The notes under the pieces are model-generated. The model was not told the DNA's origin. It saw only the letters and a program-made list of their open reading frames with translations, and did not search any database. A DNA stretch of 64,000 bases from Giardia intestinalis (taxonomy: Eukaryota): the NCBI GenBank assembly GCA_000002435.2, contig CM018790.1; one strand, 5' to 3'. Made by a program: the position numbers and the translations under genes. Positions within the stretch are counted from its first letter, which is position 1. Each line of letters starts with the position of its first letter. This document shows positions 1,104-58,448 of the stretch, piece after piece.

Positions 1104-1661
1104 ATGTGGGGTTTAAACTTTTTTATTATGGCCGTACAGCGCCAAGTATTTCTCGATGAGCCTACCACGGGACTCGACCCTGTGACAAAGCGTGCAGTTT
1201 GGCGAACAATCGAAGAGGCCAAACAGGGCAAGACCATCATCTTAACAACGCATAGTATGGAGGAAGCTGACAGCCTTGCACAGTACATCGCAATCATGGC
1301 GGCTGGTCAGCTTCGATGCATTGGAACCAAGGAACGGTTGAAGGCTCGATTTGGCTCTGGCTACAGAGTCCAGATCATTCACGTCACAGAGTCAGTTGGC
1401 CGCGTCGACGCACTTCTTGTCTGCTCAGCACCTTATATCCGTCTTGAAAAGAGGGAGCATATCCCCAATGACAAAACGCACACTCGATCCTTCTACGTTG
1501 TTCCTCAAGGGCATCCAATCTCGTACCTCTATAAAGCCCTATATAGAGAGAAGTCCAGCGGGTCTGGACTAATAAAAGAGTTTGGAGTCTCATTCACAGG
1601 CCTCGAGGAGGTGTTTTTGACCATTGCACACATGGTAGAGCCGCCGCCAGAAGGAGTATAG
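1104..1661 (+). CDS. ABC transporter nucleotide-binding-domain C-terminal fragment (ABCA-like), a probable gene remnant
   Basis: Walker B (VFLDEPTTGLDP), D-loop and H-loop (IILTTHSMEEA) are present. Walker A, the Q-loop and the LSGGQ signature are absent, and there is no space for them upstream: the V-ATPase stop is at 1045 and only an AT-rich initiator-like sequence (aaaaATG) intervenes. The ORF-caller start at 1095 is TTG; the first ATG is at 1104. Confidence 0.5.
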   Translation: MWGLNFFIMAVQRQVFLDEPTTGLDPVTKRAVWRTIEEAKQGKTIILTTHSMEEADSLAQYIAIMAAGQLRCIGTKERLKARFGSGYRVQIIHVTESVGRVDALLVCSAPYIRLEKREHIPNDKTHTRSFYVVPQGHPISYLYKALYREKSSGSGLIKEFGVSFTGLEEVFLTIAHMVEPPPEGV

Positions 1662-1673
1662 ATACTTTGGATG

Positions 1674-3815: not shown

Positions 3816-3840
3816 CTTTTATTTTTAAATAAACTTTACT

Positions 3841-4885
3841 CTCCAAGGGATTTACTCTTCTTCATCAAGGTCGGCTTGCTAGCTCCTGTCCGAGTAAACC
3901 CGTCCAGGATCCGAAGCTCGGATGCCGCCCACTCTGGAGAAGAGCCTTGTGCCTCCTCGCCCGGGGAGCCGTTGGGTGCCCCACTATGCGCTCTGGGGCG
4001 TCTCTCCTCTCTGACTGGCTTGGGTCAACCATCGTCTGACATCTAGTGAGCACCCGCTGTCTCGGGCCTTGCGTCAGTCGTGGCGATCCAGTCTCGAGAG
4101 CAGTTAACTCTGGCCATGTACTCTGGAGTAGCTTTGTGGCCCTGGTGCTCTACGACGAGGATCGCACGCCACGACTTCGGGTGTCTACCCCGTTCCTCGG
4201 GTGCCTCTTTGTCTCCCCATGACGTGGATCATCGACCCTATTGTCGGAGGTGCGCTCCCCATACGCCTCCATCTTGGAGTCATAGTACGCGTTCGTGGAT
4301 GCCGATGGAGTACTCCTATGCGTTGTGTCGGGGGAGAAGTATGGCCCTCTGCTCATGGATCGCAGGGCGCTCTTGCAGGTGGTCAGTCACTCAGCACGAG
4401 ATCATGTCAGCGCTCACCCTGTGCAGTGCGTCTGGCTCGGTGACGTGTGGGCTGGTCCATCTGCACAGCACACTTGGGTGATGCTTCGGTCTGTCGAGGC
4501 GTCGTCCAAAGCATCAGAAGCGGTCAGGACCGGTTCATCGAGGTCGTCTCTCTACAACCGGCACCCGTCTACTCGAGGGTGTCAGGCACTGCCAGCTGCT
4601 GCGGCAGACGCCTGGCGGGTGGCCCAGGTCACCGCTCTCCGGTGTGGGCAGGATCAGTCCGCCTCTGCCAACCAGACACCCCAGGGGCCCCATCTCTTGT
4701 CGAGGGACTCACATAGGCCACGTGTGGGTCCATCCTGGCCAGTGGGCAGTGATTGGTGCCATCACTGGCTCCAGGCCCTCCGTTGCCCCCTCTATCGCCT
4801 CGGGGAAGGAGGCATAAATCTTCCCCGTCAGAAGCAGACGGCATCCGACTTCGGACTTCGGATTCTGGGTCTCAGCTGGTGAACA
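3841..4885 (+). repeat. GC-rich non-coding dispersed repeat, copy A (~1 kb); direct repeat of 54508..55525
   Basis: By eye this aligns along its whole length with 54508..55525. Nearly identical blocks: 4141-4320 vs 54771-54950 with about 2 differences, and 4561-4880 vs 55201-55520 with about 7 differences. The 5' block and middle are more diverged, with several indels including a ~35-40 nt length difference near 4060-4140. No ORF is conserved between copies because indels shift the frames. Confidence 0.85.
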
Positions 4886-5250
4886 AGCAAGGGGCTTGCC
4901 TGGTATAATAACCCGCATGGGGATTTGCTCGGATTAACTTCCGATATTCCTTAAAATGAAGACGGTACTCGGCAAAACCTCAAGTAGTCTATCTTACATG
5001 ATATCACGAACTTGATAAGAAGACATGAGGGCGGCATAATTAGCCGGTAGATCGACACTAGAAAAAAGAATACCTACTATCCTTACTTCAGAGCAAAACG
5101 ATACCAAGTTAATTGGCTTAAAGTGCAAGACACAAACATGAACGGCGACTCATGAAAAACCACACATTGGGTCAATAGTTGGTGGATTTTTTCATCAAGA
5201 CAAGTAAACAGTGAAGAAAATTGAAAGCTTATTTATTGAGAAATCTCACA

Positions 5251-7761
5251 ATGACTCTTGTCGTCTCTCTTCTTCTTTTGTACGGTATTTTCTCAGAATG
5301 CGCCCAGAACAGTGACTGCGGGGGTGCGACCGGCGTCTGCAACGTCACGATCGGCGGCAAGAAGTACTGCTCCAAGTGCGACGGAGCACGGGTCCCCGTC
5401 AACGGAGACTGCAGGCTGCTGAGCCTCTCGCGGAGCATATGCATAGTTCCTACAGATAGCACCCCCACTCCAGGCTCCTGCTCGGGCTGCATCCGTGACT
5501 TCCTCTTCTACAGGGGCGGGTGCTACCGCACGGCATCCCTGATCAACGCCATATGCAAGGAGAAGCACATCGTCGAGGAGGGGATGTACTGCGGGGCGTG
5601 CGCCATCGAGGGCGACGTCCCGATCGACGGGGTGTGCGTAGCAGCAAGCGCAGATAGCTCTGGAAACACGTGTGACAAGGGCGTGTGCACGACATGTGGC
5701 AACGGATACTTCTTCCACTACGGGTCGTGCTACAAGTTCGGAGGGTCCCCGGGTGCCAACATTTGCTCTGACAGTACTAGCACTACTGGCTCTGTCTGTG
5801 GCTCTTGCGGGTCGAAGTTTGTCAAGAACCCTAGTGCGGGCCCATCTGCCACCTCCTGCTTCGCGTGCTACGGCCTGGACGGGACCCTCTTCTGCGAGCG
5901 CTGCCGGATGAACGTGCTCACGAGCACAGATGTGAAGCCCACCCTCTGTACGAAATGTAAGTCGGGGCACATCCCCCTCGATGGACGATGCATCTCCGCC
6001 TTCTCTGCTGCTTCTGCACTCGCCGGCTGCTCCACCTACAAAGGTTCAGACAATGCCATGGGACTTTGCGAAACGTGCTCCTCCGGCTACATGCTCTTCT
6101 ACGGGAGCTGCTACTCTGTCAACGGCCCCCTCGCCCAGGCCATCTGCAAGACCGAGAACCAGATCTACCTCGGGGGAAGAGTCTTCTGCAAGCAGTGCGC
6201 CCAGACAGACCACTACCCCATCAACGGCTTATGCATTGCTGATAAGGGATCACATACGTGCGAGGCGGGCATCTGCACAGCATGCGACACCAGCACAACC
6301 CCCGTCGACAACTCCAAGGTTTTCCCGTTCTATAACGGCTGCTATGATGCAAACTCTGCAATCGGAAAGCTAATATGCCAGGAGGCGTCTAATGGAGCGT
6401 GCTCAACTTGCAATACAAACGAGACATCGAATATAATAGCTAATCCTAATTCTGCAGATGGCCAACCAAAATGTCTTGGATGTTGGGACGAGGCAGCTAC
6501 TGGGGTGGCCAACTGCGGAGGGTGTGCGACCGGCACAGACGGCGATTCCAAGATCGTCTGTAGCAAGTGCACCGACTCGACGGAACCCAAAGACAACACG
6601 TGCCCTCAGGCCCTCCCGCCCACAACGCCTGAAGGATGCGCCGTCCAGGGCTGCCAGGCGTGCTCGAAGGACTCTGCCACGACGTGCGACACTTGCTTCT
6701 CTCCACTTGTCATGAAGGAGGACAAGACGAAGTGCTTCGGGAGCTGCCTTGCGCTGGGTCTTGGCTACTACAACGACGCCGGTGTGTGTAGGCCATGCAC
6801 CAGCAAGTGCCTCACGTGCACAGACGGGACCACATGCACCCAATGCGCCGAAGGGTACTATCTCGAGGTGTCGGGCGCCGGCTCAACGACGGGGACCTGC
6901 AAGGCGTGTGCCGCTGGGTGCTCGACGTGTACTGGTGCTGGTGATAGCCTCTGCTCCACGTGCGTCACAGGGTACTACGCCGCATTCAACGTTAGGCAGG
7001 GAGGACCCGGAAAGTGCGTTCAATGCAGCGTCTCTGAGGACGGGTACACTGGCGTTGAGCATTGTGCAGCCTGCTACAGCACTACAGGGCAGACAACTGG
7101 TGCCAAGAATGTGGTCTGTGAGAGCTGCGAGGACGGGTACCTTAAAGAACATGTCGATAACAAGGTCGTCTGCAACCCACCAGCCCCGAAGTGCACGGTT
7201 CCGTTGTGCGCCATATGTGTCGAAAACGACGCGATGAGGTGCGAGCACTGCACGACCGGCGCGTACCTCTGCCCGCGGACGGCGGCGTGCACGAAGGACT
7301 GCGCCAGCTGCGGCGGCTCGATGTACCCCGACGAGGACCTCGGGGAGTGCCAGCCGTGCGACATCACAAACTGCCTGGTCTGCGCGACGGGGCTCAAGTG
7401 CGAGAGCTGCGCGGAGAACGCCGTCCCCATCTCCCCGGACGTCTACCATACGGCGTGCATGGGCTGCAGCGACACCGGGGGCATGGACGGCTGGGTGGGC
7501 CTCGCGGGGTGCACGACCTGCGAGCTGACCGACAAGGGCGGCGGGAGCGTCAACTGCCTCGACCCTGGCTACTACCGGCGGGGCGGGCTCGGCGGGGGAG
7601 CAATCGCCGCCATCGTCATCGTCGTCCTCCTCGTCCTGGCCGTCGCCGGCTTCCTCGTCTGGTGGTTCGTCTTCAGGAGGGGCGGCCGGCCCAAGCGCGG
7701 GGCGAAGTACACATCGCTCATGCGGGGCGAGTCCTACGACTACCGCCAGTCCCTAATATGA
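5251..7761 (+). CDS. High-cysteine membrane protein (HCMP), VSP-like cysteine-rich ectodomain
   Basis: N-terminal signal peptide MTLVVSLLLLYGIFSECAQ, dozens of CXXC/CXC and GCY-type motifs, a single C-terminal TM (AIAAIVIVVLLVLAVAGFLVWWFVF) and a basic cytoplasmic tail that does not end in CRGKA. The ORF-caller start at 5221 is TTG; the first ATG is at 5251. AGTAAAC lies 7 nt after the stop. Confidence 0.85.
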   Translation: MTLVVSLLLLYGIFSECAQNSDCGGATGVCNVTIGGKKYCSKCDGARVPVNGDCRLLSLSRSICIVPTDSTPTPGSCSGCIRDFLFYRGGCYRTASLINAICKEKHIVEEGMYCGACAIEGDVPIDGVCVAASADSSGNTCDKGVCTTCGNGYFFHYGSCYKFGGSPGANICSDSTSTTGSVCGSCGSKFVKNPSAGPSATSCFACYGLDGTLFCERCRMNVLTSTDVKPTLCTKCKSGHIPLDGRCISAFSAASALAGCSTYKGSDNAMGLCETCSSGYMLFYGSCYSVNGPLAQAICKTENQIYLGGRVFCKQCAQTDHYPINGLCIADKGSHTCEAGICTACDTSTTPVDNSKVFPFYNGCYDANSAIGKLICQEASNGACSTCNTNETSNIIANPNSADGQPKCLGCWDEAATGVANCGGCATGTDGDSKIVCSKCTDSTEPKDNTCPQALPPTTPEGCAVQGCQACSKDSATTCDTCFSPLVMKEDKTKCFGSCLALGLGYYNDAGVCRPCTSKCLTCTDGTTCTQCAEGYYLEVSGAGSTTGTCKACAAGCSTCTGAGDSLCSTCVTGYYAAFNVRQGGPGKCVQCSVSEDGYTGVEHCAACYSTTGQTTGAKNVVCESCEDGYLKEHVDNKVVCNPPAPKCTVPLCAICVENDAMRCEHCTTGAYLCPRTAACTKDCASCGGSMYPDEDLGECQPCDITNCLVCATGLKCESCAENAVPISPDVYHTACMGCSDTGGMDGWVGLAGCTTCELTDKGGGSVNCLDPGYYRRGGLGGGAIAAIVIVVLLVLAVAGFLVWWFVFRRGGRPKRGAKYTSLMRGESYDYRQSLI

Positions 7762-8571
7762 TTCCCCAGTAAACGGAGCTATCGCCTGCCGGTGCCTGTC
7801 TCTGAACGCGCATATCCCGGAGATGTCGACGGAGCCGAGGAGCCTCCGCACCCGCAAGCGCTCCCCCGGAAAGGGCTCGGTGTCCGCCGTCTTCGAGATC
7901 GACACGCTGCACTCTGCGGCATCCGACGCGACGCAGGAGAGGCCGTTGTGGAGCACCACCCGGGAGATCTCGCTGACGTGGACGGACAGCATGGGCCGCA
8001 GAATGCACACTCGATGCTTGGCCCTGCTGGCAAAGTCCATGACCTCGCAGTTGTAGTACCCCCGGAGCCCGAAGAAGGAGGCCCCGTGGACCCCGGTGAT
8101 CGCCAGGGTCTCCAGGTCGTCCAGCAGGTGGTGGCCGAGGGCCAGGGCGTCGTAGCCGCCGGCGGACACAAAGCTCGCCAGTGTTCCGCGGCGGCAGCGA
8201 GAGCAGACGCTGCACGCAGACGCCTTCCTGGCCTCCTGCCCCAATGCATCCAGGCGGGCGATCTTGGCTGAGACGTCCATCCCAACCACCTGCTGCTCGA
8301 ACGTCATGGCTCCCTCTGCGGCGTCGTCGATCGACAGCGCGCACGGGCAGAGGCTCCGTATCGTGTCCAGGATGAAGCCGGGTATCTTTGGGTCGAAGGT
8401 CACAGGGGTCACTTCCAGCGCCCCCAGGTCTCCTAGGCCGATGGGGTCAAACAGCCGCTTGATCATAGTAGCTGGAAGGAAGCCTACGCCTCTTCTGAAA
8501 GGACAAAAGTCGTCCGGTCTAGCCATCGGGACCAGTGGGTCAAACCGTTCAGCGTTAGAAGGAAAAGCCAT
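7753..8571 (-). CDS. Ncs6/Ctu1/TtcA-superfamily (tRNA 2-thiolation PP-loop ATPase family) homolog with a degenerate N-terminus
   Basis: The central block CSVCSRCRRGTLASFVSAGGYDALALGHHLLDDLETLAIT matches the Ctu1/Ncs6 block C..C..RR.AL..GA..L.TGHNADDIAETVLMN. LSIDDAAEG matches the SIDEG block. The expected upstream SGGKDS PP-loop and N-terminal CxxC zinc finger are not found in any frame. The gene overlaps the HCMP 3' end by 9 nt (convergent). Confidence 0.55.
   Translation of the reverse strand: MAFPSNAERFDPLVPMARPDDFCPFRRGVGFLPATMIKRLFDPIGLGDLGALEVTPVTFDPKIPGFILDTIRSLCPCALSIDDAAEGAMTFEQQVVGMDVSAKIARLDALGQEARKASACSVCSRCRRGTLASFVSAGGYDALALGHHLLDDLETLAITGVHGASFFGLRGYYNCEVMDFASRAKHRVCILRPMLSVHVSEISRVVLHNGLSCVASDAAECSVSISKTADTEPFPGERLRVRRLLGSVDISGICAFRDRHRQAIAPFTGESY
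7768..7774 (+). promoter_or_regulatory. Giardia-type polyadenylation signal AGTAAAC downstream of the HCMP stop
   Basis: AGTAAAC lies 7 nt after the TGA at 7759-7761. Consensus AGTRAAY is established for Giardia. Confidence 0.5.
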
Positions 8572-8953
8572 TCTCGGGCGTCGCTAGTCTGCTGCTGTGG
8601 ATCTCAGTGCGTTCCTACGTAGAACAAACCAATTACATGGCCAACGTGTAGCCGCGTCACGCTCTGAAACGCATGTGTCTGTAGACAGTTAGTATACGGT
8701 CCAGTCATCTCCGTGTGCAAAGACTGTCATTAGAAGCAATGGGCTGACAGCCTGGGGCAACATGGTTGAAGCACGCTTCCAAATAGTAGTGGGTGCAGGC
8801 CCGAACAGCAACCTTATGAACAAGTTACTTAAATTACAAGATTAAATTATGAGAATAATGTTCCACCCAGTATGCTCCGAGACGTTAGAGAGCATGCAGA
8901 TACAGGGTACAGTCTACAGAGCAAGCTGCAGTGCAAATTCATAAGTATTGGTT

Positions 8954-11900
8954 ATGACCTTTTGTTCTCATGGAGCTGTAGGGTTTCCCGTATGTGGTTC
9001 CTGTTTGATTGAGTCTATCCAAGACGGGCGGCCTTCTGCAATGCTGTATGGAATGTTAGCCAACGTTGAAAAAGAGATCAACCGATTCAGCGAACAGTGC
9101 CCTGTTTCTGAGCTACCACATACCATTCAGAAACTGTGTGACGTTATGTGCTATATTACAGCTGATATTTCACGCACCTACGGTCTGCGATTTCTATTTT
9201 ACGTGCGTGGCTATATTTCATTTGATTGTCTTTTGAAGGTACTGAACATGCTGGCTGAGCGAGTAGAAGTAGACCCTGATACTTGGGCTGTTACCCTATT
9301 AATTATTTTCTGCTTGGCACTACCGTGTAAGAATGCAACGGCCAAAGATCCAGCAGAGACATCAGTCGCCGGCCTTCTTCATGGCCTCCCTCAGTACATC
9401 AGAATGCTAAGAGTTTACATCGAAACCGGTGGCAAGGAGATGTTGATTGGAGCTCTACTGCTCGTTTACACCCTCGCTCTTCGTCTCTCAATTGCATTGC
9501 TAGGAAATCACAACCTGATCGTAGGTCATGAAGACGCACTGCGGCAGTTCCACAGAAAGATCCAGGAGTGCATCAAGTTATGTGAGGGGTTAGCGGTTGC
9601 TGATAGAATTGCAACCCAGGATACAACCCTTGCGTTGCTTTGTCAAGAGGCTATATTTTCCATTATCCCGCTAAGAGGAGGAGATAGAAAGAAAAAGGGA
9701 GCAAACAATAGATATCTTCAGGGACAGGTTGCTAAGGTCGATAAACCTGACGTGGAACCAGACTATAGGCGGATGTTAGCATCATTGACCGCGTGCTTCT
9801 CCACATCCTGTTTGGATGCGATAGATTTTAGTGGTGTCTGTTATACATCAACCGGCAATGCTGTGCATACCATCTATAGTTGTCTAGAGCCAATTTTATC
9901 TGAGGCCCGCGAAGGGTTTGGGATATTGCAGCAAACAGTTGAGCAATGTAACGTTAGTACACTGATTAACTTGTTTTTTCAATGTCAACTGCATGGAACC
10001 GTGACAAAGGCGGCAGTCCTCAAATTGCTGTCTGGGATAGTCGCCACATATGGTGTACAACAGTCTGGAGCCTTTTTCAATTCTACCCCTGCCTTCCTCA
10101 GAGATGCCTTCTTGATAGAACTCAATACCATGGTGAAACTAAAACTACTTCAGGAGGATACTGCATCGGCGTCTGTTGTTGTATCTGGCATTATATCTTC
10201 AAAAACCAGTTATTCTGCGTACTCTGCATGTATTGATTACTTGAACGAAGCTGTCGAACATCCCCTCACCCACGGTACAGCGGAGTTGCTGTCTCTGCCC
10301 ATCATTGTCAGTCGTGATGACTTCCCCTGTTTTGTCTCTAAAATCAAGTCTGGCCCAGACGATTCTGCAAACCAATTCATATGCAATACAAAAAGCATAC
10401 TCATTATGCGCCATATAAGTAGCAAGCTAAAGCAGGGGCGCGTTGCATCGGTAAGCACCCTAGTAGACCTCCTGGTTACATATTGTTCCGGCACGTCTCT
10501 ATTTGATGCTACAGCATGGAGAGAACTAAACGAGATAATTGAAGAAATGCTTGTATTAAAATTAGAACCAGAAGATTGGTATCGCCTATTTCAGCTTCTT
10601 TCCCCTTTATTACACATATTATTTGAGTCAGAAGCAAATGAGGAAGACATAAGGGATCAGGAAATACAGATTCTGAAGACTCAAGTGCTCGACCATTTGA
10701 TGAAGCTAACAGCACAATATTGGGGACTAAAGGACTGTCCATCCATAGCCCTCCTCGCCACTGCTATCGATAGTCTTAAGCTTTACGGGCGCGGAGCCCT
10801 TAATTCTATGGACAGCGTGCTATTCTGGATAGTTCTGTCGCACTTGGTCCAGAATAAGAAGCCATTCGACATCGTTGGAACCGTGAGCTTTATTCTTACC
10901 AGGCTTGATTTTTTACAAGAGGAACCAGACGGTGCTGCTACAGCCCAGCGATACCTTGCTGTTTTAATAGCAATCTATCTAGGTCAATCAGAAGAATATA
11001 GAACAGCTGAGACGGGAAGAAACCTTTATTCCCAGATATGGCGTCACCTTGCTCGCACTACAGGGCATTTATCATCCTGTTCGTGTGAAGAGGAAATGTT
11101 TTTGGTGTATGCATTGAAGAGTCGCGGTCTTCTTGTACAACGAGAGGAGAGTACACGCCAGAGAGTACAGCTAGTGTGTGCTTGGCTTGCAAGAAAGAAG
11201 CAGGTCAGACAGCAGCTTGGTCCGTCTCTCACAGTTCAGCTCTCCTTTCTTGATACGGCACAGAACTATCGTGAGGTGTATCCAGTCATGGATATTGTCT
11301 TCAATAGATACAAACCTGAAGAGTACCTTACAGATCTCTGCACTCTCCCTCCAATCGATGCTAAAGGCCTTTGTAACATTATAGGGCTATCAAGCATTAG
11401 TCCGGGCTTTTCCACAGTGTTTGCAGAATTGCTATTGTGCAAACTCTGCTGCGATCGTCTCCAGGATGCCGGTGTCATCAGAGGGACGGGCAGCGGCTCT
11501 AATTCTTTGCAAAGGACAGAGCCGTCACAGGCAGCGATGGACGCGCTTGAGCGTCTTTTTAAGCGTACGAGATCCAAGCAAACAACGAGTACTCTTCTGG
11601 GTATCCTACTTGTGTGCATGCATCTGTTAGACATCGACATTTCTGGCCAAAGTCGAACGATCATTGAAGCCATGCTACCAGCCAGAGAAGTGGATGGACC
11701 AATAGACCATGAAGTCTCCTGGTTGTACGCAGCTCTAACTCTGCTACTGTGCATAAAGACTTCGCAGGACAATTTTTCTACAGGGATGCTATCACATATT
11801 TCGGGAGAGCATGGTCCCAGCAGAAGCGATGAGGATCCTATTGTTATTTTGCTGGCCATCATGTGTCACCTCAGACACCCAATAACCATAGAGTCTGCTT

Positions 11901-50554: not shown

Positions 50555-51814
50555 CTATGCCTTTCCGCGGCAGAGGAACCACCAGCAGAGGAAGCCGACA
50601 AGCCCTCCGACGACAACGATCACGGCGACGGAGATACCCGCGATGGCGCCAGTGGAGAGCCCGCTCCTGTTCGTGCTTCCGCCGGTACTGTCACCGTTCT
50701 TGAGGTAGCAGAGGACGGAGCCTTGATTATTAGATGGAGGAGCGCAGCTCATGCAGCCAGCAACTCCCTTGACACTTCCACTGTCACTTTCACATGATGT
50801 GCATGTCCCAGGATCTAATCCAACCATGTAGTACCCAGTTGCACACGTTGTACAAGCATTTGCAGAATTAGCATCACGACATGTCTTGCAGGTCGAATGA
50901 CACGAGGGGCATGCTCCATTATTAGGCTGAAGACTATTGGCGCACGTCTGACATCCACCATTGCTATCAGCTAGTGTGCATATCTGCTCACCGGGCTGTC
51001 TGCCGAGTTTATAGCAGCCTCCATCTTGAAGGAAATGATCTGCAGCACACTGAGTGCATACGCCACCTGCTGCGTTCGTGCAGAATGAATTCCTTGTTAC
51101 TGAATTAGCGCACACGCCATTCTGAGGTGCCCACTTATCTTCCTTGCATTTTGAACAGTACTTCGTACCGCCGATTACCGCTCCACACTCTGCACACCCG
51201 TCCACCTCTGCTTTGCACTCATCTACACAAGATCCACCTTGATTAGGATCATCATTGGTGTATTTTAGCATTTTCCCGGGAGGACAAGCTGTGCACTTCG
51301 CTGGTCCCTTTGTGGTGCACCCAGCACAGCTAGGATCACAAGGCTCGCACTCTTTGTCTCCGTTGTAGTAGCTTCCTATTGCTCCGCAGCTCTGCGTGCA
51401 CTGCTTTGTCGGGGTGAGGTAGTTGCCATCATTACATTCGGTGCAGATTTCGTTGTCTGTTTTGGGGTTGTCACATGCCTTGCAGTTGGGAGTATTGCAC
51501 TGCGTGTTAGAGGCCTTCTCGCACGCGGTCTTCCCATTGTTCAGGCTGAATCCCGGGTTGCACACGCAGACGTTCTGGTCGTTGGCTGCAGAGTTCTGGG
51601 GGCAAGTGGCGTCGCAGCTTACTCCATTGAGCTGCACCTTCTTTCCGCCGCCGCAGGTGAGGCACGTCTGGTCCTGGCCCACACCAGTGCAGGTCTCGCA
51701 GCCCGCCTGGGTCAGTCTTTCTTCGCATGCCGTGTTAGAGGCCTTCTCGCAGCCGTTCTTTCCGTTGTGCTTTGCCAGCACGGTTGCACAAACTAGGAGA
51801 AATCCTACCAACAT
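50555..51814 (-). CDS. Variant-specific surface protein (VSP)
   Basis: N-terminal signal peptide MLVGFLLVCATVLA, numerous CXXC motifs, a single C-terminal TM and the invariant cytoplasmic tail CRGKA. The extended VSP polyadenylation motif follows the stop. Confidence 0.9.
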   Translation of the reverse strand: MLVGFLLVCATVLAKHNGKNGCEKASNTACEERLTQAGCETCTGVGQDQTCLTCGGGKKVQLNGVSCDATCPQNSAANDQNVCVCNPGFSLNNGKTACEKASNTQCNTPNCKACDNPKTDNEICTECNDGNYLTPTKQCTQSCGAIGSYYNGDKECEPCDPSCAGCTTKGPAKCTACPPGKMLKYTNDDPNQGGSCVDECKAEVDGCAECGAVIGGTKYCSKCKEDKWAPQNGVCANSVTRNSFCTNAAGGVCTQCAADHFLQDGGCYKLGRQPGEQICTLADSNGGCQTCANSLQPNNGACPSCHSTCKTCRDANSANACTTCATGYYMVGLDPGTCTSCESDSGSVKGVAGCMSCAPPSNNQGSVLCYLKNGDSTGGSTNRSGLSTGAIAGISVAVIVVVGGLVGFLCWWFLCRGKA

Positions 51815-52446
51815 TAGCCGGGTTCGTGTGCCACTGCTCTTCCATCAGGCTGGTGTGTTGCCGCGAGCAGTGAGAGACAGCCGCTCTTGCTCTCTTGATC
51901 AGTTGGACCGGAGAAGGACGAGATAGGAGCACACCAACCAGAGGCCAGCTGATAGTGTAGTTCTCTCTGACTTCCATAGGAACAGGACCAGTGAGGGCCA
52001 GACTCAGACCGCACCTCTCTTGTGGAGTGATTGCTCGGGGCGCACTCCTGTACATTGCTGTCACTGTATCACTGACCCCGCCTGCAGGTGCGCTCAGAGG
52101 TCTCATGGGTAAGCTGCGCCCACTTCTCGACCGTCCGGAGACGATGGCTGGTTGTGGATAACATGACGAGAGTTCTCCCTAGTGATGCATCCAGAGCTCA
52201 GTGTGGTCCCTGATCGGCATACTCTGTCTGGGGCACTCCGCGTCGGCCTCCAGGATCCGGCCTGCTTAAGGCCATACAAGCCGTTAGTATGCCTCTCCTT
52301 GGCCTGCCATCGACAGCTCACACTGGGCGCCTTGCTCGGGTAGTAGCCAAGGCCACTCCAAAGGATGGCTCCGGATTGCAGTTAAAATCAGCTGCGGCTG
52401 TTGACTCCACTCCCTGTCCCAGCCACCGCAGAGGGCGCCCTAGGAG

Positions 52447-54567
52447 TTGCTAGTAACAGTGCAGTTAGCGGCTTTGCAGAGCCGATGGGCGCTGGTGGCA
52501 TCCCCGTGCTCAGCGGGGGCCTTCAGTGTTATCTACTCTCCCAAGGGATGCCCCCACCTCACTGTGAAGGAGATCCGGCTCGACGGTCTGGATCAGCACG
52601 GTGTGGATGCTATTAAGCGTAGGCTGGCCGCCCTTCTTAACATCTTTCACCCGGGTCCTCAAGTATCATCAAGTAGTCGAGGACGAGGGCCTCATCTACG
52701 TCGTCACGGACCGGCACGACAAGACCCTCGAGCACCTCCTCGCCGAGCACAAACGAAGGAAGACCCCCGTCCCCATTACTATGATCCTCTCCGTCATGAA
52801 GCAGGTCGCCGCCGCCCTCGCCTACCTCCACGGCCTCAGCGAGGTAAGTGCTAACAGGCTTGTCCACCGCGACCTCAGGCCTACCAATATCCTCATCAGC
52901 GCAGATGGTGAACACTTCGTCATCGCCGACTTCGGCCTCTGCAAGGACGCCCTGTGGAGTGGGAGTACTCTCATGGGAGTGGCGTACATGGCCCCCGAGA
53001 TTCTCCTCCGTAATGAGACCAGCCATGCTTCCGACATGTGGAGCCTCGGGGCCATCATTTATGAATTAGTAACTCTGAGGAGACCGGACTTCTTGGGGGG
53101 CAAGGAGCCGGCAGAGGTCTTCGTCGATGGGTGGAGACCAGACCTGAGCGGTCTCACTGATGGCTTCATGCAGAATGTTCTGGAGGGGATATTCGTATTG
53201 GAGCCAGAGAGGAGGCCGACGGCCAGGGAGCTGCACGAGACGCTCGCTACATTCGACATCCCAGTTGGTGAGTTGGGAGGTCAGTGCGTGATGCTGAAGT
53301 ATAAGTGCGGATCCTTGGAGGCTGCGCTGAATGGCGCTAACGCCAGGATCGCGTTGCTGGAAGAGGATGTTAAGATTAAATCTACTAAGATCGACGCACT
53401 TGAAGACCAAAGTAAGGAACATCTAGCTATGATTAAGGCACTGGAGAATAAGCTTGCACAGTTCGATGACAGGATGAACACGACTGACCCTCAGTCCAGC
53501 CTCTTTTTGTTGCCCGGGCTGATGCGTGCCGCGCATACGAATAGCACGGAGACCGTCTGGATGCTGCTTGAAGAAAGACTCGGTGTTGGTCAGCGCGACG
53601 AGCAGGGGCGCATCAGTCCCGTCGAGTTGCTTGTTGGGGAGGAGAACGGTCTCCAGGACAAGAATGGCTGGACTACCTGATGATCGCCACAGAGGAGGAC
53701 TATGCAAGAGCTGCCTCCCTTCTGGTCCCATATGAGAAGGACCGGATCGGCAGCGAAGGCAAGACGGCCTTGGTGATGCGGCAGAGGCAGGACATGGAAC
53801 CGTGGTGGAGGCCATCGACCCAACCGATGAGAATGGCATCACAGCACTCATGCGAGCTGTTAATAGAAACGACGCGGGGGCTGTGAAGGCAGTCATACTT
53901 AGCCAGAGAAGGAGGAAAACATACAAAGAGGTCACAAGAAGCGGATGGTACATGCGCAAAGGAACAGCTCTGATGATGGCTGCGGCAATGGATACGCAGA
54001 AATAGTAGAACTGCTAGCAGAGCACGAAAAGGGAGAGAAAGTAGGCGGTTGGGCCGCTCTCGTATTCGCGGCACTGTGCAATCGTTCCAATGACCCCCTG
54101 GTGGACTATATTGGGCACGTTGAGCTTTTGATGGAGTATGAGAGCAGTATCTCAGGGTGGACGGAGCTCATGTATGCAGCAGCACGAGGGCACGAAGGAA
54201 TCGTAGAGCTACTCGAGCAGGAGACTGGCATAAGGAACAACGAGCATCAGACTGTCCTCACATGGACGGTGTGCAATGGCCATCCAGAGTGTGTCAGACC
54301 CCTGCTGAAGGACGAAGGCGGCATGCAAACGACCAAGGGGGGATCGCCCTTATGAACGCAGCATATAGCAACGCCGTGGAGTGTGTAAGGCTTCCTAAAG
54401 AAAACGAGAAGGATCTGAAGACAACCTGCAGTTGCTATGATCACTCGCCCGGTACCACTGCTTTCGACATCGCTAAGAAGAAGGATCACAAAGAGATGGT
54501 AGGCATCCTCTCAAACGAGATCTACTCTGTTTCAACAATGTCGGCTTGCCAGCTCCTGTCCGAGTAA
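52447..54567 (+). pseudogene. NEK-ankyrin kinase pseudogene with multiple frameshifts
   Basis: Recognisable kinase and ankyrin segments: GAFSVIY...TVKEI (52447 frame), HRDLRPTNILI...DFGLCKD...YMAPE...DMWSLGAIIYEL (52601 frame), a coiled coil, then ankyrin units (GKTALV.., NGITALMRAVNRNDAGAV.., GWTELMYAAARGHEGIVELL.., GGIALMNAAYSNAVECV..). These are split over at least six reading-frame segments (frames 1,2,1,0,2,1), implying five or more frameshifts. The last codons and stop lie inside repeat copy B. Confidence 0.75.
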
Positions 54568-55525
54568 ACCCGTCCAGAGTCCGAAGCTCGGATGCCGTCC
54601 ACTCTGGAGAAGAGCCTTGTGCATCCCGCCTGGGAGCCGTTGGGTGCCCCACTATGCGCTTCGGGGCGTCCCTTCTCTCTGGTCCGTCGGGGTCAGCCAT
54701 CGTCTGACATCTATTGAGCTCCTGCTGTCCCGGGCCTGCCGTCGGTCACAGCAGCCTGGCCTCCACGTGGCCCTGGTGCTCTACGACGAGGATCGCACGC
54801 CACGACCTCGGGTGTCTACCCCGTTCCTCGGGTGCCTCTTTGTCTCCCCATGACGTGGATCATCGACCCTATTGTCGGAGGTGCGCTCCCCATACGCCTC
54901 CATCTTGGAGTCATAGTACGCGTTCGTGGATGCCGATGGAGTACTCCCATGCGTTGTGTCGGGGAGAGGTCCGGCCCTCTGCTCACGGATCGCAGGGCGC
55001 TTTTGCAGGTGGTCCGTCACCCAGCACGAGATCATGTCAGCGCTCACCCTGTGCAGTGCGTCTGGCTCAGTGACGTGTGGGCTGGTCCATCTGCACCGCA
55101 CAGCACGCTTGGGGGAATGATTCGGTCTGTCGAGGCGTCATCCGAGGCATCAGAAGCGATCAGGACCGGTTCGCCGCTTGGTTGTCCCGCTCGGCAGCCG
55201 GCACCCGTCTACTCGAGGGTGTCAGGCACTGCCAGCTGCTGCGGCAGACGCCTGGCGGGTGGCCCAGGTCACCGCTCTCCGGTGTGGGCAGGATCAGTCC
55301 GCCTCTGCCAACCAGACACCCCAGGGGCCCCATCTCTTGTCGAGGGATTCACATGGGTCACGTGTGGGTCCATCCCGGCCAGTGGGCAGTGATTGGTGCC
55401 ATCACTGGCTCCAGGCCCTCCGTTGCCTTCTCTATCGCCTCGGGGAAGGAGGCATAAATCTTCCCCGTCAGAAGCAGACGGCATCCGACTTCGGACTTCG
55501 GATTCTGGGTCTCGGCTGGTGAACA
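54508..55525 (+). repeat. GC-rich non-coding dispersed repeat, copy B; direct repeat of 3841..4885
   Basis: See copy A. The 5' end overlaps the last ~20 codons, the stop and the AGTAAAC signal of the NEK-ankyrin pseudogene. The 3' end abuts the Kelch gene. Confidence 0.85.
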
Positions 55526-55655
55526 AACGAGAGACTGCCAGCCTAGTGCGGCGGTGGCTCGCACGAGGGGGTTTATCCGGGTAGCAGTCGGCAAACCGAC
55601 CTTTTTGAACAGAGTAAATGGGAGACAAGTCTCAAAAAAGCAAATTGCCAAGGTC

Positions 55656-58448
55656 ATGCCAGTTTCCCTTTCTTGGGTTCAGGTTACTACTCCAGGAGCA
55701 CCAACTCCGCGCTACGGATGTTCCATGGTCCCAACGGCTGATGGGATTCAAATCTTTGGCGGCTATTCAACGCATTATCTCAACGAGTCTTTATCTTTTC
55801 AGTCACAATCAGAGCCTAAAAAGTGGCGTCTGCGGCGGCGATCCCGGCCATACCCTGCAGGGAGACGAGGACATATCATGGTAGGACTTGATGAATGCCA
55901 GCTTTTATTTGGAGGAGACTTAGGCTCCGCATGCGTCAATGATCTGTGGATATGCACTGGCAGCGAATGGCGTCAGATCTTTGGGCATTCAGATACAGGA
56001 TCTTCGCCTTCTGGTCGCTATGGCCACGCCGGCTGCGTTCAAAATTCGTGTCTGTATGTGTTCGGCGGAGCCGATCGCTATCAGCAAACGTCTATGTTTG
56101 GTGACCTTTGGGTATTGGATCTTACTACCTTACGTTGGAACAGAGGGCCAGAAGGCCCATCTCCAAGATATGGGCACTCAATGGTCACAGTGGGCAAAGA
56201 TATTTTCGTAATTGGTGGAATGACCCAGAGCGGACTTGCTGGGGATGTCTGGCGCTTGTGTGTCAATGAGAGTCATGCGCTGTCGTGGGTACAGCTAGAC
56301 CCTGTTTCCAAGACTCAGATTTTTCCGCCACGAACAGAGTTTTTCGCTACCGAGCTTTCTCCTTCCTCAGTGTTGCTATTCGGTGGTTCATCAGCACAAG
56401 CACCGCTTAATGACATGTGGATTCTCAATCTTAATACTCAGCAACATCTATACACTCCAGTCTGTCTTCAGATACCCTCTACGCTTCCCGTCCCCAGACA
56501 CGCCTTTGGTGCCATAACCACATCAACCGGTACCATCTCCTCTGCGCATGGGTCTGAAATAGCTGCAGAATTTGGAGGACGTGATCAGTCGTTAATCTGG
56601 CTGACAGACTTGGGATCAGTGTACACTCCTGACCATACCAGCAGCAGCTCCTACACATTATTTAATGGCTCATTTATAAAGCTATATATATTCGGAGGCA
56701 GAGGAGCAGATTCTTCCTTGAATGATCTCTGGGAATGTACGGTATGCTTGCTTGAAGAAACGGCAATGACTTACGGTATCCAGGAGACCAAGCTTACAGA
56801 CCGGAACAGACTTGCAAACCTTGGTACTAGCTTTAGTAATATCAACTATCCCCCCAACTCCGACATCGATCTTTATCGCAGCGGAGATTCGTTTGGAGAA
56901 TACAATAGCCGCACTCTTGGGGCACCAAGTACAGACATTTATATATCTCATTTGACTGAAGAAAGGTCTTTTCTATATGATAAGCCAAGCATTCAATTGC
57001 CCACTGATTCCTTCAAGCCTAACGTTCCACGGTTTCCTGAAGCACAAGAAGAGAAAGAGAAATCCTCTATTACTAAGCGTATGTCCTCTGCTAAAGACAA
57101 TGATGTACATAAGGCAAGCTTCATGGAGCACGCTAGTATCAATGACCCGTCTTTATTAAGCAACAATATATCTAGAGAGGATCACGATGCTAATGAGTCT
57201 ATAACTCCGTTTATTCACAAACCACAGCAGGCTCTAGTACGCGAAACTCTGAAGCAGCAGAGCCGCCCGTCATCTGGGGGGACCGGATCTCCTTACCGTA
57301 TGACCACATCCAATCCAGATCAGCCCGTTCAGCCCACAGATGAGGTGCAGAAGTACTTGCTAACTCAGATGGTAACCATCAATGAAAACCTTCTGAAGAT
57401 GGAGGCGGCATTCGAGGCGGCCGAACTGGCACGAAAATTCTCGGAGGATCTGGCGGAGCAATCCTCAGCTGTGGACGATCTTGCTCTAGCAGTTTCAGAG
57501 TTTAAAAATGATGTTATGCATGCCATTGAAGGCCTCTCTCAAAAGTTATCAGGATATGCAATTACCCAACAAGGACACGAAGAGGACATAGTTGAATTGA
57601 ATGGAAAATTAAATGAACTAGATAATCTAATTATTGAGCGGGCTAGTGACACTACGAGAGATGAGCTTTTTATGGAAATGCAAGTGCGAATTGCTAGTTT
57701 AACTAAGGAGAATAAAGCACTGACAGCCAGACTTACTAACGTAGAATCTTTGCTGATCGCCACAACACTTGCAAACAACCCCACTGACGAGATATTGGCT
57801 TTACTAAATGCAGTGGTCAATCAATCTGCAACTCTTCCTCTAGACATAACGACACAGCCGGTTACGGGTGTATCCAAGGAGAGCCTCAAGCCTGACACGG
57901 CTACTACCTCAGCATCGTCACAGGTCACTGGAGCAACACTGCAAGGTGTATTCGATGAGCTTCAAGAAATGGGAAAGAAACTCAATGCGCTAAGCAATAG
58001 TATTGGAACAAAATCACAACTCTCTATGCTGCCTAGCGATATTGGGGATGAGAAGGTTACAATTCAATTTGATCAACCCAGACAACGGGGCCAGCCACAA
58101 CAAGCTCGACAATTCCAAACACCGTATCGAAACGAACAGATGGCGCCACATTTTGACAGTCAACAGCGTATGCAACAAAGAGTAGAACCCAGGACACGTC
58201 AAGGTGCAGTAATCTCCCCCCGTTCAGCGGTGACGCGCACTTCAGCCATGTCACGAAGTTCCGGATCACTTTCTACATATGTAGCTGGGGAAGATCAGCG
58301 TGACACTGGTAGGCCAACGTCTGCATTTCTGTCAGCCCAGGGACGGCCGCGGTCTTTCTCTGCCTCTACTTCTCGAAAACCAAGTAATGAGTCACTTGCC
58401 ATGATAGCAAAGGTGCTTAATGCACCAGATGAACTTTCGGATGATTGA
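55656..58448 (+). CDS. Kelch-repeat protein with a long C-terminal coiled-coil region
   Basis: The ORF-caller start at 55554 is GTG; the first ATG is at 55656. Kelch units: IQIFGGYS, QLLFGGDLG..NDLWIC, GRYGHAGCVQNSCLYVFGGAD...DLWVLDLTTLRW, YGHSMVTVGKDIFVIGG and LLFGGSSAQAPLNDMWILN. The C-terminal ~350 aa are heptad-rich and acidic. Confidence 0.75.
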   Translation: MPVSLSWVQVTTPGAPTPRYGCSMVPTADGIQIFGGYSTHYLNESLSFQSQSEPKKWRLRRRSRPYPAGRRGHIMVGLDECQLLFGGDLGSACVNDLWICTGSEWRQIFGHSDTGSSPSGRYGHAGCVQNSCLYVFGGADRYQQTSMFGDLWVLDLTTLRWNRGPEGPSPRYGHSMVTVGKDIFVIGGMTQSGLAGDVWRLCVNESHALSWVQLDPVSKTQIFPPRTEFFATELSPSSVLLFGGSSAQAPLNDMWILNLNTQQHLYTPVCLQIPSTLPVPRHAFGAITTSTGTISSAHGSEIAAEFGGRDQSLIWLTDLGSVYTPDHTSSSSYTLFNGSFIKLYIFGGRGADSSLNDLWECTVCLLEETAMTYGIQETKLTDRNRLANLGTSFSNINYPPNSDIDLYRSGDSFGEYNSRTLGAPSTDIYISHLTEERSFLYDKPSIQLPTDSFKPNVPRFPEAQEEKEKSSITKRMSSAKDNDVHKASFMEHASINDPSLLSNNISREDHDANESITPFIHKPQQALVRETLKQQSRPSSGGTGSPYRMTTSNPDQPVQPTDEVQKYLLTQMVTINENLLKMEAAFEAAELARKFSEDLAEQSSAVDDLALAVSEFKNDVMHAIEGLSQKLSGYAITQQGHEEDIVELNGKLNELDNLIIERASDTTRDELFMEMQVRIASLTKENKALTARLTNVESLLIATTLANNPTDEILALLNAVVNQSATLPLDITTQPVTGVSKESLKPDTATTSASSQVTGATLQGVFDELQEMGKKLNALSNSIGTKSQLSMLPSDIGDEKVTIQFDQPRQRGQPQQARQFQTPYRNEQMAPHFDSQQRMQQRVEPRTRQGAVISPRSAVTRTSAMSRSSGSLSTYVAGEDQRDTGRPTSAFLSAQGRPRSFSASTSRKPSNESLAMIAKVLNAPDELSDD

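Follow-up and report, generated by a model that had tools for sequence, protein, structure and literature searches.

A repeat pair in Giardia duodenalis, one copy joined to a NEK-ankyrin pseudogene, as probable dead and internally deleted non-LTR retrotransposons

Two related GC-rich segments of ~1 kb, copies A and B, lie 50.6 kb apart in direct orientation within a 64,000-nt stretch of Giardia duodenalis isolate WB (hereafter the window), assigned by exact matches of its proteins to the 1.54-Mb WB chromosome. Both are very likely dead, internally deleted copies of a non-LTR (LINE-type) retrotransposon, antisense to the plus strand; the link to LINEs comes through related copies in isolates P15 (assemblage E) and DH, at 60–65% nucleotide identity. 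They are ordinary transposon debris of a probably known family, not the trace of a lost kinase gene. A sequence-only reading of the window had proposed an ancestral unit made of a NEK-ankyrin 3′ end plus ~1 kb of downstream DNA. We find that the downstream segment is better described as a deletion derivative of the retrotransposon. Our comparison covered WB, DH, P15 and assemblage B.

Results

Copy A (3839–4886) and copy B (54508–55526) aligned at 88.8% identity over 1059 columns (blastn, E = 0), and MAFFT agreed, so the repeat homology described by the sequence-only reading stands. An ungapped repeat search returned the pair as six blocks of 83–99% identity. The two copies differ by indels of 2, 37, 1, 6, 2 and 2 nt, sizes indicating a plus strand free of coding constraint. 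Global alignment of the 60-nt junction in A and B scored 34, against −8.9 ± 4.0 for shuffled sequences (n = 2000, maximum 5); the earlier proposal had been staked on this similarity being significant, which it is. Besides the four termini of A and B the window contained no further copies, and its repeat search found no direct terminal repeats (LTRs). No family reached gathering score in an Rfam scan of the whole window, which ruled out an rDNA or ncRNA relic as the identity of the repeat. That the duplication is an artefact of the WB reference assembly is extremely improbable, since both copies occur with their own unique flanks on one 199-kb DH contig, copy A is present in an ENA assembly (L007), and the copies differ by 11% and several indels. 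An artefact would nonetheless fit the short-read (Logan) contigs that end inside copy A, and the P15, DH and assemblage B contigs that end at or near these elements.

The unit has a discrete edge. BLAST similarity reaches 54508, but a recurrent boundary is found at ~54517–54520 (GAG followed by ATCTACTCT), 48–51 nt before the end of the copy B stop codon. Copy B does begin within the NEK-ankyrin 3′ end and include AGTAAAC, as first noticed, with its start now refined to this edge. From terminus alignments and a deletion map against the P15 element P1, copy B is delimited as a short-form, presumably dead non-LTR retrotransposon at 54517–55622 on the minus strand, with its 3′ end at the NEK junction and its 5′ end 34–37 nt from the ATG of a Kelch gene.

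The two ends of the unit are inverted repeats of each other. These were undetected in the window by the ungapped repeat search and required gapped alignment. In copy B, 54520–54571 pairs with 55569–55619 (77%) and 54573–54626 with 55448–55502 (73%). The arms of P1 (P15 contig L001, 4963–9313) comprise 136 nt at 93% plus 62 nt at 92%, or alternatively 193 nt at 93%. Terminal inverted repeats measure ~170–190 nt in fuller copies and ~110–190 nt overall. Such repeats are atypical for LINEs. Twin priming was rejected as their origin, since it inverts upstream element sequence and does not duplicate the 3′ end. Inverted matches and an alignment of 15 termini from three isolates place the copy B 3′ repeat at 54520–54626 (plus strand), its outer part (54520–54571) being the "NEK tail" with TAA and AGTAAAC. 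The 5′ repeat, of a long type, spans 55448–55619 (minus strand, inverted matches) and includes a third, inverted copy of the tail at 55569–55619, past the end of the A/B BLAST alignment (55526).

The copy B outer boundary ATCTACTCT is the reverse complement of AGAGTAGAT, in place of which most other termini carry the poly(A)-signal-like AGAGTAAA(T/C). Read on the element sense strand, most termini finish with ...CAGAGTAAA(T/C), whereas the junction of copy B with the NEK gene has ...AGAGTAGAT. The outer boundary (A/G)TTTACTCT is constant, and the tail, i.e. the outermost ~50 nt, occurs at nine termini with unrelated, non-NEK flanks, among them the promoters of the helicase and Kelch genes and a VSP-side fragment. 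No target-site duplications were seen flanking the copies. Copies retain both ends and differ by internal deletions, with no pattern of variable 5′ truncation, which departs from most LINEs yet agrees with the account of GilD (PMC2861651); the short-type 3′ repeat has lost 66 nt between ACCC microhomologies. DH contains an additional short-form copy (L014), 74.9% identical over 1049 nt, whose outermost termini are degenerate and which does not adjoin a NEK gene.

Longer P15 copies identify the core. In these, an ORF with zinc fingers and RVT_1 is followed by a CCHC/endonuclease-like ORF end and then by the sequence repeated in the window. An ORF at L001 5771–7744 encodes zf-C2H2 and RVT_1; the latter continues out of frame via YADD to ~7940 and scores above the Pfam cut-off. 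Within L001, 1471–3455 is colinear with 6992–8941 at 67% (the 3′ part of the RT ORF and downstream sequence), and 7418–9313 matches 18019–16165 at 85.5%. The repeat core is thus colinear with an RT/CCHC-endonuclease ORF in three related copies. The window cores match these elements at nucleotide E values of 1e-36 to 1e-61. A conceptual P15 peptide of the ORF end detected relics on the minus strand of both copies by tblastn. The copy B relic (54814–55107), a degenerate ORF C-terminus covering the putative CCHC/restriction-like endonuclease region, matched at 34% over 124 aa (E = 4e-10). The copy A relic (4097–4338; ...YYDSKMEAYGERT..., ...ILVVEHQGHKATPEYMARVNCS...) matched at E = 6e-11, with the relic of the ORF stop at 4043–4045.

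As in LINEs, LTRs are lacking, and the 3′ terminus of the units is defined and bears a polyadenylation signal. The RT domain is found in the related copies; in the window copies this part is deleted, and tblastn with two P15 RT ORFs found no RT sequence in the window. At L001 2900–3510 an uninterrupted ORF end reads CVLCGARMHEDHIQNC...RHD...KPGLFL...IDVGIV...YYRAKIQAYG, then stop. We assign it as a putative CCHC/PD-(D/E)XK-like endonuclease from motifs read by eye and the features of R2-type elements. This region matched no Pfam family, and its best PDB hit, influenza PA endonuclease, was insignificant (E = 0.44). Phmmer with the copy B relic ORF retrieved 10 other short Giardia relic ORFs; across 1.84 billion representatives, the search returned short relic ORFs and three repetitive false positives, with no intact element protein. 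Relic ORFs annotated as hypothetical in WB and DH include GL50803_0024471, _24701, _38224 and DHA2_151797. Degenerate NEK, VSP or HCMP pseudogenes were excluded as the source of the cores by empty tblastn searches with 97 NEKs and all window ORFs of ≥150 aa, the HCMP and VSP among them. A 247-aa ORF in the P15 spacer has no protein-level conservation with the window (E ~0.8) and is considered a spurious ORF of GC-rich DNA.

Inverted repeats of ~110–190 nt, a discrete outer boundary and the recurrence of a short form of uniform length (~1.1 kb) at several loci would suit a non-autonomous DNA transposon (MITE or foldback-like) unrelated to retroelements. This reading is refuted for practical purposes and retains very little probability, because three copies are colinear with the RT/CCHC-endonuclease ORF between their repeats and RT is encoded by longer copies that share these termini. 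Neither target-site duplication nor a transposase-like ORF was found.

The deletion map shows what the probable retrotransposon copies have lost. In copy B, 55602–55491 corresponds to the P1 5′ terminal inverted repeat, 55445–55389 to L001 7999–8058, and the core (55403–54626) to L001 8101–9090. Missing from the window copies is ~2.9 kb comprising the 5′ UTR, zinc fingers and RT. Another P15 copy, P3, carries a different deletion, and element ORFs are frameshifted. The P15 ortholog of the copy B 5′ repeat, upstream of the P15 Kelch gene, adjoins a relic of the RT-ORF N-terminus, which identifies the Kelch-side end as the 5′ end of the element.

Copy B lies between a NEK-ankyrin gene and the Kelch motif-containing protein KAE8302222 (55656–58448, plus strand). 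The NEK-ankyrin gene (52447–54567, plus strand) was delineated by three-frame translation and has a kinase domain, coiled coil and ankyrin repeats. At least five frame changes between 52447 and 54567, and an equally broken gene in DH, mark it as a pseudogene. Upstream of it is "VSP with INR" KAE8302221 (50555–51814, minus strand), and the annotation has no protein between this and the Kelch gene. The pseudogene frame ends ...ILSNEIYSVSTMSACQLLSE, then stop, with TAA at 54565–54567 and AGTAAAC at 54563–54569; its last 16 codons and stop fall inside the inverted repeat of the element. We retrieved 97 NEK homologs, all from Giardia, of which the best full-length match was P0002 of P15 (58% identity, 100% coverage). 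P0002, an intact NEK of 769 aa, terminates in ...EIYSISSRQVCQLLSE, and a copy of the element lies downstream of it. An intact NEK gene followed by this segment, on which the sequence-only reading had also relied, therefore exists in assemblage E. The shared 50–60 nt are, as read from the predicted frames, the coding 3′ end of one NEK gene lineage.

The tail nevertheless probably arose in the element rather than in the NEK gene. In a comparison with the eight closest canonical NEK paralogues, the 16-aa extension occurs only in the window NEK and P0002, and the eight end ILS(G/K/E) or ILQ exactly where the tail starts. The join (...ILS(N/G), then E-IYS...) thus sits at the normal stop codon position. 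The inner end of the tail, CTCCTGTCCGAGTAAAC (LLSE, stop and poly(A) signal), resembles canonical NEK ends such as that of P0051, CTCCTCTCGGAGTAAAT, so the element terminus might ultimately derive from a NEK gene. In addition, VSP, NEK pseudogene, tail and segment recur in DH as a paralogous block, 87% identical to the window, which ties the region to NEK/VSP rearrangements.

Copy A is a short-form element at 3849–4940 (minus strand), placed by alignments between a helicase promoter and a high cysteine membrane protein gene (Group 3, KAE8302202; 5251–7761, plus strand). Its 3′ repeat (3849–3966, plus strand), resolved by gapped inverted-repeat and termini alignments, holds the tail relic with TAA at 3895–3897. 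The sequence-only reading had correctly seen the same stretch here with TAG (3880–3882) for the CAG of copy B (54550–54552), but its coordinates, 3841–3900, are shifted by ~3 nt. In DH, the ortholog of copy A keeps CAG. The 5′ repeat (4798–4940, minus strand) is 95% identical to copy B in its inner part, whereas its outer part is degenerate, the tail having shrunk to ...TCCGAGCAAATCC.... On the other side, the putative DEAH-type RNA helicase KAE8302201 (713 aa; 1674–3815, minus strand) has its ATG at 3813–3815, 34 nt from the copy A boundary, with the AT-rich initiator directly upstream of copy A, as originally described.

A kinase gene was said to have been replaced or deleted at copy A. We found no trace of one: with 97 NEK proteins as queries, tblastn detected nothing NEK- or ankyrin-like within copy A, next to it, or in either core. 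Copy A occupies the orthologous site in DH (L006) and P15 (L005), the P15 site is likewise without kinase sequence, and the element is absent from the site in assemblage B. With a kinase-free position in P15 and both sites empty in assemblage B, no kinase gene need ever have accompanied copy A. These data weigh heavily on the proposal that a NEK-ankyrin 3′ end and ~1 kb of downstream DNA were segmentally duplicated, with copy A later losing its kinase. This reading can draw on the coding tail of the intact P15 NEK, the DH paralogous block, a BLAST alignment running ~10 nt deeper into the ILSN codons, and a tail inner end resembling a canonical NEK end (LLSE, stop, AGTAAA). It is nevertheless largely refuted and improbable: the tail is inverted at both unit ends, the same outer boundary adjoins helicase, Kelch, VSP-side and other flanks, the core is a probable retroelement ORF relic, copy A and its P15 site are kinase-less, and canonical NEKs end where the tail begins.

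Comparison of isolates indicates how the A/B similarity is maintained. Within the unit, identity was 75% for WB-A/DH-A, 88% for WB-A/WB-B (blocks of 99–100%) and 80% for DH-A/DH-B, against 99.3% and 98.9% for adjacent genes between WB and DH. More broadly, WB and DH share 75–90% inside the elements and the VSP-NEK block versus 99% in adjacent genes, and WB and P15 share 60–66% inside the element versus 88% in the flanks. The identity mosaic follows the genome of residence, not the locus. As WB-A is only 75% identical to its DH ortholog between 99% flanks, we attribute the 88% identity of A and B to gene conversion. Of the earlier suggestion that the pair records a duplication or rearrangement involving the NEK family, the tie to NEK/VSP rearrangements is retained and a recent segmental duplication is not.

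In the synteny comparison, both sites are occupied in A1, A2 and E, and both are empty in assemblage B. In assemblage B, an HCMP-like gene adjoins the Kelch gene. A ~50-kb inversion relative to assemblage B may account for this adjacency; the helicase side shows no clear fit, and the B contigs end there. As for neighbours, the window copies lie near the HCMP Group 3 gene and "VSP with INR", and VSP genes accompany the elements at L004, L001 and L014. Selection on a conserved functional non-coding element (a long ncRNA, regulatory region or terminator cassette) could explain the blocks of 99–100% identity between A and B, positions conserved in A1, A2 and E, and the location of both copies ~35 nt from a neighbouring ATG. 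It is very unlikely, however, given orthologs that diverge more than their flanks (75% vs 99% for WB/DH, 60–66% vs 88% for WB/P15), empty sites in assemblage B, the lack of Rfam matches, and a mosaic by genome rather than locus, the signature of gene conversion.

Discussion

The following history of the retrotransposon copies is proposed. The fuller element would comprise a 5′ inverted repeat, 5′ UTR, one ORF, a short 3′ UTR and a 3′ inverted repeat, its single ORF encoding C2H2 zinc fingers, reverse transcriptase and a putative CCHC plus restriction-like endonuclease region. The window copies would have lost the ~2.9 kb from the 5′ UTR to the end of RT, keeping both inverted repeats and a degenerate part of the endonuclease. 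Because the element ends are mutual inverted repeats, a gene entering from either end would read identical sequence. The NEK-ankyrin gene, abutting the element at its normal stop position, would therefore read 16 codons into the repeat, to an in-repeat TAA that overlaps the AGTAAAC poly(A) signal. Copy A is probably a separate, old insertion by the helicase promoter, which has the same 50 nt because this stretch is the terminus of the element; as a change in DNA that codes for nothing, its TAG would carry no meaning. The likeness of A and B would then be maintained by conversion between scattered members of the family, and the short form may have spread by conversion or by mobilisation in trans.

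The family is most probably the known GilD (Genie-type), judged from architecture and the published description. Arkhipova and Morrison reportedly described GilD in 2001 as a "dead" non-LTR retrotransposon family of Giardia lamblia, and Burke et al. are said to have reported the Genie elements in 2002, with Genie 2 carrying flanking inverted repeats of up to ~172 bp. Arms in the window and P15 would be of a comparable size. To our knowledge, published GilD/Genie descriptions contain neither read-through of a NEK ORF into a terminus nor gene conversion between copies 50 kb apart. Our elements share with GilD/Genie the status of a Giardia LINE with a single ORF of zinc fingers and RT and, putatively, a C-terminal CCHC/restriction-like endonuclease. 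They also lie at chromosome-internal sites adjoining VSP/HCMP genes, copy B by the VSP-NEK block and copy A by an HCMP gene. GilD copies themselves adjoin VSP genes and carry microhomology-mediated deletions (PMC2861651). As in GilD, inactivation appears to have proceeded by internal deletions, frameshifts and substitutions, not by 5′ truncation (PMC2861651).

The domain order, with zinc fingers at the N-terminus, RT in the middle and CCHC plus a putative PD...D/E...K-like motif last, recalls site-specific R2-type LINEs, as do the motifs CVLCGARMHEDHIQNC, RHD, KPGLFL, IDVGIV and K..Y in L001 2900–3510. Our copies gave no sign of insertion at a single fixed target, R2 elements are not known to carry terminal inverted repeats, and our endonuclease is motif-based. 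The NEK junction resembles gene–TE chimeras in which the final codons, stop and poly(A) signal of a host ORF are supplied by a TE, with the chimeric ORF intact in P0002. It differs in that no splicing is involved, the host gene is a pseudogene in WB and DH, and use of the tail is predicted from sequence. In Giardia variable gene-family regions, synteny breaks at VSP/HCMP/NEK/21.1 genes and non-allelic gene conversion of dispersed repeats have been reported (PMC3091692). Our pair, in a VSP/NEK/HCMP island, similarly shows the mark of concerted evolution, within-genome paralogs being more alike than between-isolate orthologs. Here, however, the converted sequence is apparently non-functional TE debris, with partners 50.6 kb apart in direct orientation.

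A wider combination of these ideas is doubtful when taken as a whole. It would hold that an inverted-repeat terminus of a dead LINE was co-opted to supply an intact assemblage E NEK with its C-terminus, stop and poly(A) signal, that the element prefers NEK/ankyrin stop codons in either orientation, and that the two relics are converting now, perhaps marking the breakpoints of the ~50-kb inversion relative to assemblage B.

The value of this analysis is mainly corrective. What looked like evidence of duplication in the NEK family turns out to be transposon debris, and the 16 residues called the "NEK tail" are best explained by read-through into a retroelement inverted repeat. For the annotation of Giardia genomes the consequences are modest: a number of the relic ORFs currently stand as hypothetical proteins, many assemblies have contig breaks at the elements, and gene conversion blurs orthology calls near them. 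The pair also provides a small example of a host ORF ending in a TE terminus and of a LINE probably inactivated by internal deletion with both ends retained. It likewise illustrates how dead TE copies can evolve in concert in an organism whose sexuality is debated.

Results and Discussion

Copies A (3839–4886) and B (54508–55526) aligned by blastn with 88.8% identity over 1059 columns, so the repeat claimed in the sequence-only reading is real. MAFFT alignment and a repeat search were concordant, with identity blocks of 83–99% and indels of 2, 37, 1, 6, 2 and 2 nt. As also claimed, copy B starts within the final codons of the NEK-ankyrin frame, which ends ...ILSNEIYSVSTMSACQLLSE, with the stop TAA at 54565–54567 and AGTAAAC at 54563–54569. 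The same stretch is found in copy A with the expected CAG to TAG change (3880–3882), and 34 nt separate copy A from the helicase ATG on the minus strand. Formal alignment of the 60-nt junction was significant (score 34 versus −8.9 ± 4.0 for 2000 shuffles). Copy A is flanked by genes for the helicase (KAE8302201) and a Group 3 high cysteine membrane protein (HCMP; KAE8302202, 5251–7761), and copy B by that for a Kelch protein (KAE8302222); 'VSP with INR' (KAE8302221) is a further flanking gene. Exact protein matches for these four genes locate the window on the 1.54-Mb chromosome of G. duodenalis WB.

Gapped self-comparison of copy B revealed two inverted matches, 54520–54571 with 55569–55619 (77%) and 54573–54626 with 55448–55502 (73%). 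The 'NEK tail', the ~50–60 nt at the pseudogene 3' end, is therefore also present at the Kelch-side end; this third, inverted occurrence sits beside the Kelch promoter, outside the A/B BLAST alignment. The far end of copy A carries a degenerate version. Alignment of 15 termini from isolates WB, DH (assemblage A2) and P15 (assemblage E) yielded one common end module. Its outer boundary is constant, (A/G)TTTACTCT, and reads AGAGTAAA on the opposite strand, a Giardia-type poly(A) signal. What lies outside this boundary varies between termini and includes NEK coding sequence, the promoters of the helicase and Kelch genes, a fragment from the VSP side and further unrelated sequence. The 'NEK tail' is thus the outer ~50 nt of the inverted repeat of an element. 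The inner part of the terminus (CTCCTGTCCGAGTAAAC) is similar to canonical NEK ends, and the terminus itself may once have derived from a NEK 3' end. A stretch of ~66 nt present on the Kelch side (55503–55568) and in P15 copies is absent from the NEK-side repeat (54571–54573), the gap being bounded by short ACCC microhomologies. Part of this stretch is retained in the DH ortholog of copy A, and WB copy A therefore seems to have been overwritten by copy-B-type sequence.

Longer copies of the element occur in P15 locus L001, where self-comparison aligned 1471–3455 with 6992–8941 (67%) and 7418–9313 with 18019–16165 (85.5%), and placed the window-repeat sequence colinear with the 3' part of reverse transcriptase (RT) ORFs. 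The fuller copy P1 (L001 4963–9313, 4.35 kb) is bounded by terminal inverted repeats that match over 136 nt (93%) and 62 nt (92%). Its ORF comprises C2H2 zinc fingers and the Pfam RT domain RVT_1, which runs on out of frame through YADD. Another L001 copy has an open ORF end, CVLCGARMHEDHIQNC...RHD...KPGLFL...IDVGIV...YYRAKIQAYG...stop, whose motif pattern we take to be the CCHC and restriction-like endonuclease of R2-type LINEs; profile searches gave no confirming match to this region. In tblastn, the conceptual peptide of this ORF end matched the minus strand of copy B at 55107–54814 (E = 4e-10) and of copy A at 4338–4097 (E = 6e-11). In P15, the inverted repeat upstream of Kelch adjoins a relic of the RT-ORF N-terminus, which identifies the Kelch-side end as the element 5' end. 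When copy B is mapped onto P1, a single internal deletion emerges, ~2.9 kb long and reaching from the 5' UTR to the RT end. This deletion, the RT-ORF colinearity and the ORF relics argue that the window repeats are short, dead deletion derivatives with both termini kept. The same short form occurs in DH without NEK nearby (L014; 74.9% over 1049 nt), and relic ORFs elsewhere in WB and DH are filed as hypothetical proteins.

In the GC-rich relics, both strands contain long spurious ORFs (54781–55101, minus; 4295–4882 and 54832–55392, plus). Equivalents are annotated as hypothetical (GL50803_0024471, GL50803_24701, GL50803_38224 and DHA2_151797, and also 209–247-aa P15 ORFs). L001 (ACVC01000108, 1–18300) is densely packed with element copies and NEK/ankyrin genes. 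Among the copies are two with RT, a deletion derivative of 2.06 kb and a short form flanked by two NEK genes in convergent orientation; a 135-nt flank is duplicated at 100% identity (3570–3704 and 9318–9452). Many independent assemblies have contigs that end in or beside these elements, among them contigs from Logan (L002, L003, L008) and NCBI (L004, L005, L010, L012, L013). One Logan contig starting in copy A spans 50,630 nt, equal to the A-to-B spacing, but runs in the opposite direction, so this match is probably coincidence.

NEK homologs of the window gene were all from Giardia. The gene is interrupted by five or more frame changes (52447–54567) and is equally fragmented in DH, so it is a pseudogene. 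The P15 protein P0002 is an intact 769-aa NEK with C-terminus ...EILSGEIYSISSRQVCQLLSE. Since the eight closest canonical paralogues end directly after ILS[GKE] or ILQ, the window NEK and P0002 are each longer by 16 residues, the extension starting exactly at the normal stop position. The tail is genuine NEK coding sequence, but in one lineage only. An L001 ankyrin ORF (3848–4864) has a canonical ILSN stop ~80 nt short of an element terminus.

Any gene abutting either element end reads the same 16 codons, then TAA overlapping AGTAAAC. Such read-through accounts for the NEK pseudogene end in WB and DH, and for the intact P0002 end in P15, P0002 abutting the element 5' end and the WB pseudogene the 3' end. 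The copy A relic is likewise explained as an element terminus, for which no kinase gene was ever needed. No NEK or ankyrin similarity was found in or beside copy A, and the proposed replacement or deletion of a kinase gene at this site is not borne out. Of the suggested ancestral unit, a NEK 3' end plus downstream segment, the NEK junction stands, but the repeated unit is retrotransposon debris. The original observation is confirmed and its interpretation partly supported.

Copy A and its tail relic occupy the orthologous position in DH and P15 (the P15 copy 60–72% identical to WB), and the inverted relic upstream of Kelch is also found in P15. In assemblage B, the element is absent from both sites. 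Both insertions are therefore older than the assemblage A/E split. The elements end 34–37 nt from the neighbouring ATG (helicase side, 3816–3849; Kelch side, 55619–55656), immediately beyond each gene's short, AT-rich Giardia initiator. This suggests that insertions were tolerated only where the minimal promoter was spared.

Inside the unit, the paralogs WB-A and WB-B are 88% identical, with blocks of 99–100%, and DH-A and DH-B 80%, compared with 75% for the orthologs WB-A and DH-A and 89.9% for WB-B and DH-B. The helicase and Kelch genes are 99.3% and 98.9% identical between WB and DH, and 88.6% and 87.4% between WB and P15. This mosaic, a signature of gene conversion, points to repeated non-allelic conversion among family members as the source of A/B similarity; recent duplication is not upheld.

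The VSP-NEK pseudogene block (51785–55647) is ~88% identical between WB and its DH positional ortholog (L009) and 87% to a paralogous block found in DH on a different contig (L004), versus ~99% for the neighbouring Kelch and helicase genes between WB and DH. The block seems, from these values, to have been exchanged or converted between paralogous loci. A kinase-ORF stop after ...GWTT is common to the window and the DH paralog. In L011 (1–1310; Logan SRR3177763, probably assemblage B), an HCMP-like 5' end lies, in divergent orientation, ~1 kb upstream of Kelch. It is 72% identical to the WB HCMP beside copy A (compared with window 5218–5562; the Kelch part with 55610–55967). This fits a ~50-kb inversion with breakpoints at the two elements, but could equally reflect a paralogous HCMP; the helicase side in assemblage B gives no clear fit to the inversion. 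The HCMP Group 3 gene (5251–7761) has a paralog of at least 90% identity (KAE8303703) on the 2.76-Mb WB chromosome, and its DH ortholog is annotated as VSP.

The window elements fit GilD/Genie when likened by described features, not by consensus sequence. Burke et al. (2002) reportedly described, for one Genie family, inverted repeats reaching 172 bp, which would match those seen here. Three non-LTR families have been reported in Giardia; GilD is dead, disrupted by microhomology-mediated deletions, and adjoins VSP genes (PMC2861651). Synteny breaks are documented around VSP, HCMP, NEK and 21.1 genes and retroelement fragments (PMC3091692). Only two points may so far be undescribed: a NEK C-terminus of transposable-element origin that is intact in assemblage E, and the likeness, driven by conversion, of two relics 50.6 kb apart.
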